64,000 nt of DNA, from positions 17,354 through 81,353 of the forward strand of contig DATFWX010000218.1 in NCBI GenBank assembly GCA_035258845.1. Direction: 5' to 3'. The DNA is from Polyangia bacterium (lineage in GTDB: Bacteria; Myxococcota_A; Polyangia; JAHFDS01; DATFWX01). Below the pieces are notes generated by a model that saw nothing but the letters and a program-made list of their open reading frames with translations, was not told the origin of the DNA and did not search any database. Positions 6,248 through 9,355 of this stretch are shown one piece after another. Both the position numbers and the translations under genes were made by a program. Every line of letters begins with the position of its first letter. Position 1 is the stretch's first letter.

Positions 6248-6662
6248 CCCTGGGCACTCGGCAACAACTTTCAGGTGGCCGGCGTGGCCAGCGTCTATCT
6301 CGTGATGCTTGGCTGCAGAAGCGATTTGCGGCTCACGAGCGCGGCCACATAGAGGCTGGCCAGAGGGTCCGAGCGCGCGATCACATAGGTTCCGTGCGGC
6401 TCTGCGTCGTGCACGCCCAGCTCAGGTCCACAGCCAGGCGGCACTTGTCGTGCACCGTCGACAACAGGGCGTAACCGGGAGAGAGCGGCCGGCAGTCCCC
6501 AGCCCTGGCTAGTCTAGTCAGGCGCAACCGGGGTGGTCATTGCGAGTCGCCTCGCGGCGACCGCGATCGCGATTAGACGCATAGCGGGGAACCCGGTGGA
6601 GGCGCGGACCGGTGCGGCCGGCGACGCGCGCGGATGTCAAAGTCTGGCCGCGCGGTCGGGTC

Positions 6663-6947
6663 TTACCACAAGCCGTAATAAGCGCAGGCAGGTCCGTTCC
6701 AAGCCGCGTTTGCGGCGTCGTTCGCCACGCTCCACGTGGCGTCGTTCCAATCGCTTACGTTAACACCTGGGGCAAAGTCTTCTCCCGCATTTGCCGCGGC
6801 GCGCCACACCGATTCGGTGCAGGAGTAAGTCGCCAGGTTATCGAACGCCCAGTAGTTCCACACATCTAAACCTTTGCCTCCAACCACGCTCCCGAGCACC
6901 GATGCTTCGATCGAAACCAACCGCGCCTGCTTGTTCTTCTTGTTCAT
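6663..6947 (-). CDS. double-glycine-leader bacteriocin-like peptide precursor (copy 1)
   Basis: MNKKNKQARLVSIEASVLGSVVGG followed by a 70-aa Trp-rich core with 2 Cys. Hydrophobic residues at leader positions -4, -7, -12, -15 and GG at -2/-1 fit the class II / GG-leader consensus. Paralog of 7058..7342. Confidence 0.6.
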   Translation of the reverse strand: MNKKNKQARLVSIEASVLGSVVGGKGLDVWNYWAFDNLATYSCTESVWRAAANAGEDFAPGVNVSDWNDATWSVANDAANAAWNGPACAYYGLW

Positions 6948-6988
6948 AAGATGTCCTCCAGACTCTGCCTCAGCCTGCCAACTGCTTG

Positions 6989-7004
6989 TGCAGCTCGCGT
7001 GCCA
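6989..7004 (-). promoter_or_regulatory. sigma-54-type -24/-12 promoter element (TGGCACGcgagCTGCA) upstream of peptide copy 1
   Basis: In gene orientation, ctcgcctcTGGCACGCGAGCTGCAcaag lies about 50 nt upstream of the ATG. GG and GC are spaced as in the TGGCAC-N5-TTGC consensus. The identical element precedes copy 2. Confidence 0.5.
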
Positions 7005-7057
7005 GAGGCGAGAACGCCCCGTCGGCGAATGTCAACGTCTGGCCGCGCGGTCGGGTC

Positions 7058-7342
7058 TCACCACCAGCCGTAATTGGCGCAGGCAGGTCCGTTCCAAGCC
7101 GCGTATGCGGCGTCGTTCGCCACGCCCCACGTAGCTTCGTTCCAATCGCTTACGTTAACACCTGGGGCAAAGTCTTGTCCTGCATTTGCCCCGGCCTTCC
7201 ACACCGCTTCGTAGCAGGAGTTACTCGCCAGAAAAGCGAACGTCCATTCGTTCCACACATCTAAACCTCGGCCTCCAGCCACGCTCCCGAGCACCGATGC
7301 GTCGATCGAAGCCAACCGCGCCAGCTTGTTCTTCTTTTTCAT
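7058..7342 (-). CDS. double-glycine-leader bacteriocin-like peptide precursor (copy 2)
   Basis: MKKKNKLARLASIDASVLGSVAGG followed by a 70-aa Trp-rich core ending ..NGPACANYGWW. About 75% identical to copy 1. Confidence 0.6.
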   Translation of the reverse strand: MKKKNKLARLASIDASVLGSVAGGRGLDVWNEWTFAFLASNSCYEAVWKAGANAGQDFAPGVNVSDWNEATWGVANDAAYAAWNGPACANYGWW

Positions 7343-7383
7343 GATATGCCCTCAAAGCTCTGCCCTGAGCTGCCAGCCTGAAG

Positions 7384-7399
7384 TGCAGCTCGCGTGCCA
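7384..7399 (-). promoter_or_regulatory. sigma-54-type -24/-12 promoter element upstream of peptide copy 2
   Basis: Same TGGCACGCGAGCTGCA 16-mer as at 6989-7004, in the equivalent position relative to the ATG at 7342. Confidence 0.5.
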
Positions 7400-7452
7400 G
7401 AGGGCGAGAACGCCCGTAGGCGGATGTCAACGTCTGGTCGTGCGGTCGGTTC

Positions 7453-7479
7453 TCACCACCAGCCGTAATTGGCGCAGGC
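7453..7479 (-). pseudogene. 3' remnant (last 8 codons plus stop) of a third GG-leader peptide gene
   Basis: The rc reads ACANYGWW*, identical to the copy 2 C-terminus. The sequence 5' of it (in gene sense) is replaced by unrelated DNA that belongs to the integrase fragment. Confidence 0.5.
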
Positions 7480-8008
7480 ATGGTGTTCGCGATGCGCAGC
7501 AAGGAGCAAAGACGAGGTATCCGGGCGTGCAGCGAATCAACGACACAACGTGCCGAGTGCGGATCAAGTTGCGCGATCCGCGCAGCGGGAAAACGCGGGA
7601 GGTGGACAGGCTCGTCGAGGCGACGAGCGTCAGAGAAGCCGCAAGAAAACGCGCACTGCTCATGTCCGAGAAGCGCGCGGAAAACTCCGAGAGAAATTGG
7701 GGCCTCCGATCAGGGTGGGTATTCCGGTCGGACAACGGAACGCTGCGTGAGCCGAGTTCGCTTCGCAAGGCGTGGCGGGGCAGCCTCAAGGCGGCGAAGA
7801 TCGAGAAGCACTTCACCGTCCACGGGTTGCGGCGCACCTTCAACGACCTCGCAGGGCGTGCAGGCGTCGATGCGGTCGTGACGCGGGCGATCACGGCCAC
7901 GTGACCGAGCAGATGCGCGAGCACGATTCGACGGTCGGTCTGGATGAGAAGCAGGCCGCCGTGGCAAACGTTCTGCGGCTCGTTCCAGCGACGAATGTCG
8001 GGACTTAG
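7469..8008 (+). pseudogene. tyrosine recombinase (phage-type integrase), 5'-truncated and frameshifted
   Basis: Only the C-terminal catalytic half is present (...[50 protein letters not shown] / [15 protein letters not shown]...). The H-x-x-R and GH boxes are split between two frames near 7895. No N-terminal domain or start codon. Ends 63 nt before the tRNA-Gly. Confidence 0.6.
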
Positions 8009-8070
8009 GTGGAGGCGCGAGGGATCGGCCTTGACACACGCCGATGATTCGCCAATGCTCTCCCAAGTTT

Positions 8071-8143
8071 GCGGGCTTAGCTCAGTTGGTAGAGCGTCGG
8101 CTTCCCAAGCCGAAGGTCGCCGGTTCGAGACCGGTAGCCCGCT
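8071..8143 (+). tRNA. tRNA-Gly (anticodon CCC)
   Basis: Hand-folded cloverleaf. Acceptor stem GCGGGCT/AGCCCGC (7 bp). D arm GCTC-AGTTGGTAG-GAGC. Anticodon stem TCGGC/GCCGA with loop TTCCCAA, giving anticodon CCC. T arm GCCGG-TTCGAGA-CCGGT. Discriminator T. No encoded CCA. Confidence 0.85.
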
Positions 8144-8875
8144 CCGCTGCGTGAGGCCCCGGGTTGACGCAACCTGGGCACCGCTCCAGGCGCCGGCCGC
8201 GCCCACGCCACCATCCGCCGTGGTCCTCGCTGTCGCGTGTCGACCCGTCGTCCAGCGGGGGTCCACCGTCCTTCTGATTCCCGGTGATCGACGCCGATTC
8301 GCATCCGGTCCAGCAGCCCGTCGCCATCGCCAGGCCGCAAAGAAGATTCGGCAAGCAGGGCCGAGGCATCTGCTTTCTGCCGTCAAGGCTAGCAGGAACC
8401 ACACCCACAGTCAGCGCCGCGGGCGGAGCGTCCGCTATGGGAAGCTGCGATCGTGTGGGCGGGGATGAGGGCGGCGGCGTACTTCAGCTCGTTGCTGATC
8501 TTCTTGCGTTCCTGCTCGAGCCGCTCGCGCCACTCCCGTTCCCGAGGAAAATCCCTCTGGTGAACGCCGCACCAGCCAGAACGAGGGGAATAGACGGGTC
8601 TTCATGAACGCGCGAGAGCATGATATATGTCACCTCTCGATCAGCTGCAATTGATGGCGTGACGGGGGCGTGGAGTGCGACATTCCTGTCCGATCGGCCT
8701 CGTTGGCCAGACGAAACGAGTGACGAGCTGCCCTGGAGGGTTCGATCAGACGTCCGGAACTCTGCTCGGATCACCCGAGCGTCTTTGTGGACGCCACGAT
8801 GGCCGAGCAGCAAGGGCTTCCCTGCGCAGAACTCTGCCCTCGCGGTCCTAACCATTTAGGGATGATTCCCATCGC

Positions 8876-9355
8876 GTGAAGACAGAAGACGTCGCAAGGG
8901 CATACAGGATGCACGGCTATCTGGTCTTGCGACGAGCGCGACGTGTGCTGGGCAACGAGAACGAGGCCGAGGACGTGCTCCAGGAGGTGTTTCTTTCCCT
9001 GCTCGACAAGCCGGCGCAATTCGAAGGTCGGAGCGCGCTGACCACCTGGCTGTATAGTGCGACGACGCACCTTTGCCTGAATCGACTGCGCAATCAACGC
9101 ACGCGGCGCGCGATCTTGGAGCGCGCCGCGCCCCCGTTAGCGTCCCACCCGGCGCCAGGGGCCGAGACCATGGTGGCGCTTCGATTGCTGCTCGCCCAGC
9201 TGCCCGACGCGGTCGCGCGTGTAGCTGTCTACTACTATTGCGACGAGATGACCCAGGACGAGATCGCACGCGTCATGGGCTGCTCGCGCCGCCACGTCGG
9301 CAACCTTCTCGAGCGGCTCAGCGCTGCTCATCAAGACGCGGGAGGATGCGTATGA
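8876..9355 (+). CDS. ECF (sigma-70 family group 4) RNA polymerase sigma factor
   Basis: Region 2 (DVLQEVFLSLL.. TWLYSATTHLCLNRLR) and region 4 HTH (EMTQDEIARVMGCSRRHVGNLLERL). The stop overlaps the start of the anti-sigma gene. Confidence 0.85.
   Translation: MKTEDVARAYRMHGYLVLRRARRVLGNENEAEDVLQEVFLSLLDKPAQFEGRSALTTWLYSATTHLCLNRLRNQRTRRAILERAAPPLASHPAPGAETMVALRLLLAQLPDAVARVAVYYYCDEMTQDEIARVMGCSRRHVGNLLERLSAAHQDAGGCV

Follow-up and report, generated by a model that had tools for sequence, protein, structure and literature searches.

The window examined here, a 64,000-nucleotide (nt) stretch from the genome of a Polyangia bacterium (assembly GCA_035258845.1, contig DATFWX010000218.1, positions 17,354 to 81,353), holds a broken tyrosine recombinase gene between a tandem array of small peptide genes and a gene for tRNA-Gly with anticodon CCC. 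We consider it likely, with a probability of about 0.8, that this region is the decayed remnant of an integrative element from a Myxococcota integrase family that targets tRNA-Gly, left beside tRNA-Gly(CCC) with a deletion that clipped the peptide array. Judged from its sequence, the recombinase gene is an integrase pseudogene of the PF00589 family with four independent inactivating lesions, and not a functional member. A preliminary description of this stretch, made without database searches, had likewise proposed the remnant of an integrative element, and this is supported by the finding that the integrase adjoins the type of tRNA that its family targets.

Anatomy of the integrase pseudogene

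Three-frame translation of the region reveals a recombinase-like frame from about 7506 to 7898, followed by a second frame from 7895 to a TAG stop codon at 8006-8008. The joined conceptual product of 167 amino acids (aa) matches PF00589 with 29.4 bits (cut-off 27.1), and the match covers only profile positions 72-161 of 172. The product has 195 homologues, with E-values down to 3e-70, the closest of which (P0002) is 76% identical. The full-length relatives are integrases of 400-450 aa from Myxococcota.

According to the preliminary description, the recombinase lacked a start codon and an N-terminal domain, and the broken peptide repeat ran directly into the catalytic half. The comparison with full-length relatives contradicts both statements, as an ATG is present at 7492, an arm-binding domain follows at 7506-7655, and the roughly 225 missing codons are internal. 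The product of 7506-7655 shares 47% identity with residues 4-58 of the integrase of L079 (tblastn, E = 4e-14) and is collinear with the N-termini of eight full-length relatives, whose shared pattern reads '..TRYPGVfrlD..tyrIRakv.DPRTGK.kE.dR.leGv...EAa..R..l'. This stretch had at one point been placed in the catalytic domain, from an alignment that included no N-terminal sequences, and that placement was overturned by the full-length relatives. At the DNA level, the start region of L079 is ATGCGCAGCAAAGGGACC (MRSKGT; the protein begins MRSKGTVTKYPGV), and that of the window is ATGCGCAGCAAGG-AGC at 7492, where one G has been lost and the frame is shifted.

The position of the internal gap was mapped by MAFFT alignment with the integrases of L079, L014, L022, L018, L017, L020, L009 and L049. 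There is a single gap, between '...EAARKRA' and 'LLMSEKRAE...', and the deletion took the core-binding domain and, from the catalytic domain, the first half with the first catalytic arginine (Arg-I, in the motif TGLR) and the beta-hairpin lysine. Alignment to the DNA of three relatives identifies a second 1-nt deletion at 7894/7895, where one C is gone from ATCAC[C]GGCCAC; this is the frameshift that had been reported near 7895. The codon of the catalytic tyrosine, which is kept in at least 90% of the homologues (Y141), is now GAT for aspartate (7925-7927, CACGAT versus CACTAC in the relatives). Thus, the catalytic set is incomplete: the HGLRR and GH motifs are kept, Arg-I and the beta-hairpin lysine are deleted, and the tyrosine is replaced. 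The window differs from P0001, a 96% identical sequence from another sample, by three amino acids, and all three changes are non-synonymous. This fits neutral decay, with numbers that are too small to count as a test.

A change from tyrosine to aspartate was also seen in the unrelated, decayed upstream remnant of locus L040 (around 6421-6738; QDHDSS, versus REHDS in the window). The upstream fragments of L054 and L073 retain the tyrosine, and the shared change in two remnants is probably a coincidence.

A single pseudogene, and no gene, should be annotated for the integrase-like open reading frames (ORFs) in this region. As a general point, an integrase with an internal deletion can pass for a 5'-truncated one if the catalytic domain alone is recognised. 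The coordinates of the pseudogene and of the features around it are listed in Table 1.

Table 1. Features of the region between the peptide-gene array and the extracytoplasmic function (ECF) sigma factor gene, in window coordinates
Feature	Position	Strand	Remarks
Tyrosine integrase pseudogene	7492..8008	+	~190 of ~416 codons kept
Original start and first codons (MRSK)	7492..7505	+	Followed by 1-nt deletion at 7503/7504, GGG to GG
N-terminal arm-binding domain (AKTRYPGVQRIND...EAARKRA)	7506..7655	+	tblastn, alignment
Internal deletion junction	7655..7656	+	Accurate to about +/-10 nt; ~225 codons gone
C-terminal half of catalytic domain (HGLRRTF...VLRLVP)	7656..8005	+	Homologue and DNA alignments
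Degenerate tandem short repeats GTCGGGAC..GGTGGAGGC	7997..8019	+	Integrase tail, spanning the TAG stop
tRNA promoter	8031..8059	+	-35 TTGACA 8031-8036, 17-nt spacer, -10-like AATGCT 8054-8059, 11 nt before the tRNA
tRNA-Gly (anticodon CCC)	8071..8145	+	ARAGORN; Rfam RF00005, 70.1 bits
Gene-free spacer before ECF sigma factor gene	8146..8875	.	~730 nt; ORF, Pfam and Rfam scans
Repeat unit 1	6623..7017	-	94-aa peptide gene 6663-6947, Gly-Gly-type leader
Repeat unit 2	7018..7412	-	94-aa peptide gene 7058-7342, Gly-Gly-type leader
Third repeat unit, truncated	7413..7480	-	93% identical to the matching part of unit 2
12-nt direct repeat GGTGGAGGCGCG	6595..6606 and 8008..8019	+	Exact; brackets peptide array and integrase

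A family of integrases associated with tRNA-Gly

The family is represented by 67 genome loci, nearly all of them in metagenome-assembled genomes (MAGs) labelled Myxococcales, Kofleriaceae, Haliangiales, Polyangiaceae or Deltaproteobacteria. About 37 of these loci have a tRNA-Gly gene, mostly with anticodon CCC, near the 3' end of the integrase, at a distance of no more than about 220 nt in all but one. More distant family members adjoin genes for tRNA-Val, Leu, Cys, Pro, Ala or Phe.

Viral contigs from IMG/VR, and loci that lack a full tRNA, display what we take to be the element's own attachment site (attP). In this form, a segment of tRNA-Gly that runs from the anticodon stem through the 3' end (positions 31-73) begins 40-190 nt after the integrase stop codon, and in nearly every case the two are convergent. 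The attP form is of the classical design, in which a crossover at the anticodon stem-loop would rebuild the tRNA.

The 3' ends of the family integrases have a further peculiarity. Their tails encode tandem peptide repeats such as GGVSGGVSE, VGTEVGN, GGTNGGTND, SVNSGVN and KTVDQTVD (tandem-repeat tails occur in L017, L020, L022, L016, L054, L073, L049 and L009), and the DNA of the tail repeats recurs beyond the attP core in L109, L112 and L116. The reading frames of P0023, P0025 and P0064 run on into the complement of the tRNA. We infer that the tail repeats may be arm-type integrase sites overlapping the 3' coding end. The window has a degenerate version of such repeats across the integrase stop codon.

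Directly upstream of the integrase, relatives carry an excisionase-like ORF that ends '...ELDRFV...', and then the ribosome-binding region of the integrase. Both are missing at the window junction.

The tRNA gene, its promoter and the downstream spacer

The tRNA-Gly(CCC) gene is intact and is the sole tRNA gene in the window (ARAGORN, Rfam). It begins 62 nt beyond the integrase stop codon, in close agreement with the 63 nt given before. Its promoter was not called by a generic promoter scan. The layout is the one common to about 35 tRNA-Gly loci, in which spacings were read by eye: TTGAC, about 17 nt, a TAnGGT-like hexamer, about 11 nt, and the tRNA.

As had been described, there is no convincing gene in the stretch that directly follows the tRNA. 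The longest ORF in 8146-8875 has no Pfam match and the stretch has no Rfam match; its six-frame translations contain nothing integrase-like, and it holds no copies of the integrase-tail repeats. One stretch on the minus strand of this spacer (REWRERLEQERKKISNELKYAAALIPAHT, 8440-8560) looks coding, and has neither a start-codon context nor an assignment.

In L027, L028, L030, L032, L037 and L039, where no upstream integrase was detected, a GGTGATC motif lies about 20-30 nt upstream of the -35 box. The motif is similar to the tail repeats (GGDRGGD) of the distant integrases upstream of the tRNA in L022 and L040, and it may be part of a host promoter or a trace of elements since lost.

The break in the peptide-gene array

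To the left of the integrase, a 395-nt unit is present in 2.17 copies across 6623-7480. Units 1 and 2 are 89% identical in DNA, and the unit 1 peptide has 77% protein identity to copy 2 and matches P0122 from an NCBI 'Polyangia bacterium' MAG. The third copy ends at 7480, within one nucleotide of the position (7479) at which it had been said to break off. Its remnant comprises the 3' flank, the stop codon (7453-7455) and the final eight codons of the peptide gene (7456-7479), and tblastn recovers peptide residues 87-94 at 7479-7456. The sequence from 7481 on has no relation to the 395-nt unit, and the 7480/7481 junction lies 12 nt upstream of the integrase ATG. The remainder of the third peptide gene, 258 nt, was not found anywhere in the 64-kb window. 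The break at 7480 is most readily explained by a deletion with one end inside the third peptide gene; that it was a deletion and not an insertion is what we infer from this anatomy.

In the preliminary description, a deletion or recombination event was suggested to have fused an integrated element to the array, with one shared cut point for the peptide gene and the integrase. A deletion junction that cuts the third peptide gene stands; the 5' coding end of the integrase is intact, however, and its large loss is a separate one, at about 7655/7656 and not at 7480.

The junction is real and fixed in the population from which this genome comes, and it is not an assembly artefact, because independent contigs from other soil metagenomes (L001, L077 and L078) reproduce it at 99.7-100% identity. 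The same junction is present in all metagenome contigs of the same population. One of these contigs, L077, is identical to window positions 7070-8144 and then diverges exactly at the 3' end of the tRNA, where the acceptor stem ends. Past the divergence, at 1076-1304 of L077, the minus strand encodes a CarboxypepD_reg-like C-terminus. Either strain variation or chimeric joining at the conserved tRNA could account for the tail of L077. The arrangement in the window past the tRNA is backed by two other contigs, L080 and L002. Clustered differences between L080 and the window were dismissed as a contig-end artefact, as all 17 fall in the first 70 nt of the contig.

The 94-aa peptides belong to a very small family, with five clusters in a collection of 5.8 billion proteins, and have no Pfam match. 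In the same soil metagenomes, other members (loci L120-L126) are encoded by single genes whose neighbours are kinase, RCC1 or PDZ genes. A scan of neighbouring ORFs found no transporter gene dedicated to the peptides. The peptide genes look like host genes and not like island cargo, since their few homologues are single genes in ordinary contexts. The suggestion that part of the neighbouring DNA may be island-derived is not supported: the peptide genes have a host appearance, and the modestly lower GC content of 6600-9000 has no sharp island boundary.

Integrases upstream of tRNA-Gly

The integrase of the window is on the tRNA's 5' side, as had been pointed out before, and this is the minority arrangement among its relatives. 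The 3' end of the integrase points at the tRNA in every tabulated locus. The classical integrase, downstream and convergent, is the only one at about 27 tRNA-Gly loci, and 10 of about 37, the window included, have an upstream, codirectional integrase. The nine other upstream loci consist of five with family members and four with distant integrases. L009, L017 and L049 have full-length upstream integrases with all catalytic residues, L054 and L073 have family fragments, L040 has the C-terminal fragment of a distant integrase, and L022, L036 and L037 have distant second integrases. In L009, L022, L036, L037, L040 and L049 the tRNA is sandwiched between two integrases, the second of which faces back to the tRNA. 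The upstream form was found at none of the 15 loci with non-Gly tRNAs.

The local deletion does not account for the 5'-side position, because unrelated loci whose integrases are intact have the same arrangement. Upstream integrases have their stop codon 0-25 nt ahead of the tRNA promoter's -35 box, and the layout of that promoter is the same as in tRNA-Gly genes without an upstream integrase; the window fits this description. L017 (upstream) and L020 (classical) have integrases that are 82% identical in DNA, and an upstream gene in common, yet the tRNA and its promoter are inverted between them and the spacers are unrelated.

Several ways of reaching this geometry were considered and rejected. 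Mirrored integration at the 5' end of the tRNA, by means of the symmetry of the acceptor stem, is at odds with the non-homologous spacers of L017 and L020 and with the ordinary promoter layout. Inverted pairing at the near-palindromic anticodon stem-loop predicts a palindromic half-tRNA, and the observed tRNA is intact with a normal D-arm. A secondary site at the -35 box that uses the classical attP predicts the spacer and the tRNA's 3' half before the -35 box, and these are absent. No attP with the 5' half of the tRNA or its promoter was found in 25 attP-like loci or in the viral contigs, and no tRNA or promoter fragments were found within the available flanks of the upstream loci.

The possibilities for the upstream geometry include an element-borne whole tRNA, an attP with the promoter and the 5' half of the tRNA, and a second att site upstream of the -35 box. 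We tentatively raise the possibility, on which we would place no great weight, that tRNA-Gly genes in Myxococcota have two mirror-image docking positions, one downstream and one just upstream of the promoter, with the same integrase lineages in either and sometimes in both.

Probable origin of the remnant and alternative explanations

In the likely course of events, the integrase end of the element originally abutted the promoter of tRNA-Gly(CCC), and the element then decayed in place. In this scenario, one deletion, reaching on the left to eight codons from the third peptide gene's end and on the right to 12 nt before the integrase start, would have taken out what else there was of the element and most of that peptide gene. 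The body of the element would thus have been to the left of the junction. An excisionase-like gene was probably among the losses, because relatives carry one directly upstream of the integrase. Then, or also, the internal deletion of about 225 codons, the two 1-nt deletions and the loss of the catalytic tyrosine inactivated the integrase; this order of events is a probable one. Nothing here can still recombine, because there is neither an active integrase nor an att repeat, and the tRNA gene and its promoter are intact.

Several observations weigh against a decayed tRNA-Gly element. The direct repeat of the tRNA 3' end, which the preliminary description had proposed as an att site, is absent from all 64 kb when up to three mismatches in 24 nt are allowed. 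A short-word BLAST search with the tRNA and its flanks found no match longer than 12 nt in the same 64 kb, and those that were found are chance matches. An element boundary marked by an att direct repeat or a piece of the tRNA is likewise absent. The GC content is about 70% left of 5000 and 59-67% across 6600-9000, without a sharp edge. The integrase is on the minority side of the tRNA, in a geometry that could not be derived from the observed attP forms.

No close relative of the PAD-like flanking gene was found in the genome collection, its exact protein sequence had no entry on record, and no other mobile-element genes were found nearby. The 12-nt direct repeat that brackets the peptide array and the integrase has its second copy, at 8008-8019, coincident with the second integrase-tail repeat, and the first copy, at 6595-6606, is a weak candidate for an arm site at the element's far end. 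The repeat is not significant across the 7.5 kb that precede the junction, where 29% of shuffles do equally well; a p value of about 0.009 is obtained only when the search is limited post hoc to the 160 nt left of the array.

Among the alternatives, the one that survives best holds that the tRNA-Gly and its promoter were part of the element, and that the true boundary is past 8145, perhaps in the 730-nt gene-free stretch. We consider this unlikely. A codirectional integrase lies upstream of a complete tRNA-Gly in nine other loci, five of them with intact integrases, and phages that carry a tRNA of their target's type have been documented (PMC10865867). The departure of L077 from the window exactly at the tRNA 3' end would also suit such a boundary, but the tail of that contig may be a chimeric join at the conserved tRNA. 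Moreover, an element-borne tRNA sits poorly with a promoter layout that is the same as that of tRNA-Gly genes without an upstream integrase. No viral contig or attP-like locus has an integrase beside a full tRNA-Gly or its 5' half, and no integrase-tail repeats are present downstream of the tRNA.

An improbable alternative is that an element, or the integrase end of one, inserted in the third peptide gene, with 7480 as the insertion boundary. The break is a clean one, and the array and the integrase are flanked by the copies of the weak 12-nt direct repeat. However, the 5' part of the peptide gene is neither beyond the integrase nor elsewhere in the window, no element body is left between 7480 and the integrase start, and the place of recombination for this integrase family is the anticodon stem-loop of the tRNA and not a peptide gene.

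The weakest explanation, a single deletion or recombination event that fused a 5'-truncated integrase (its catalytic half only) to the peptide gene at one shared cut point, has in its favour that integrase-related sequence begins within 12 nt of the repeat end at 7480 and that the Pfam match is confined to the C-terminal part of this domain type, the catalytic one, but it is highly improbable given the start codon and arm-binding domain at 7492-7655 and the internal position, at about 7655, of the large loss.

Comparison with known systems

A decayed integrase beside a tRNA gene is a common scar. Elements that integrate in tRNA genes reportedly include a class whose sublocation is the anticodon loop, as Williams is said to have described in 2002, and the Islander database is said to collect such islands. 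The family resembles lambda-type integrases that use tRNA genes in having the PF00589 catalytic domain together with an N-terminal arm-binding domain. Its relatives share with these the integrase 3' end at the tRNA and an attP in which positions 31-73 rebuild the tRNA. Unlike these systems, the integrase in the window is dead, with no displaced tRNA fragment or att repeat, and it lies upstream of the tRNA promoter and not past the 3' end of the tRNA.

The integrases of the myxophages Mx8 and Mx9 reportedly have their attP inside the int coding sequence (work attributed to Tojo et al. in 1996, Magrini et al. in 1999 and Julien in 2003). Mx8 is said to target the 3' ends of tRNA-Asp genes, and Mx9 reportedly targets tRNA-Gly. 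The family studied here is from the same phylum, some of its reading frames run into the tRNA complement, and its tail repeats recur past the attP core, so that putative site elements would overlap the 3' coding end of the integrase. In contrast to the phage design, the tRNA-like core of the family attP follows the stop codon by 40-190 nt and is not deep in the integrase gene. Kinship with Mx8 and Mx9 was not apparent: in a tblastn search with a full-length family member, the best identity among 50,697 phage records was 27%, and Myxococcus was absent from the ten commonest organism names among the hits.

In actinobacteriophages with tRNA-dependent lysogeny, phages carry a tRNA of the same type as the target tRNA (Guerrero-Bustamante and Hatfull 2024, PMC10865867). 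A tRNA-targeting integrase combined with an element-borne tRNA of the same type would put an integrase beside a whole tRNA, as in the window. However, the actinobacteriophage tRNA is not described as abutting the integrase stop codon (PMC10865867), and the attP forms of the family considered here would rebuild the tRNA in the classical manner. The promoter of the window tRNA also has a host-type layout, and the window contains no disrupted tRNA-Gly.

Implications

For the most part, this is an ordinary remnant of a well-known kind, and the recurrent upstream arrangement is the only part of wider interest. For this genome, it identifies a site where a mobile element came and went, taking with it part of a small array of secreted-peptide genes. 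If the upstream position is the product of site-specific recombination, it would represent a mode of integration outside the known tRNA sublocation classes, of which the window would be a decayed example. In that case, a class of elements in this phylum would escape tools that map islands only 3' of tRNA genes.

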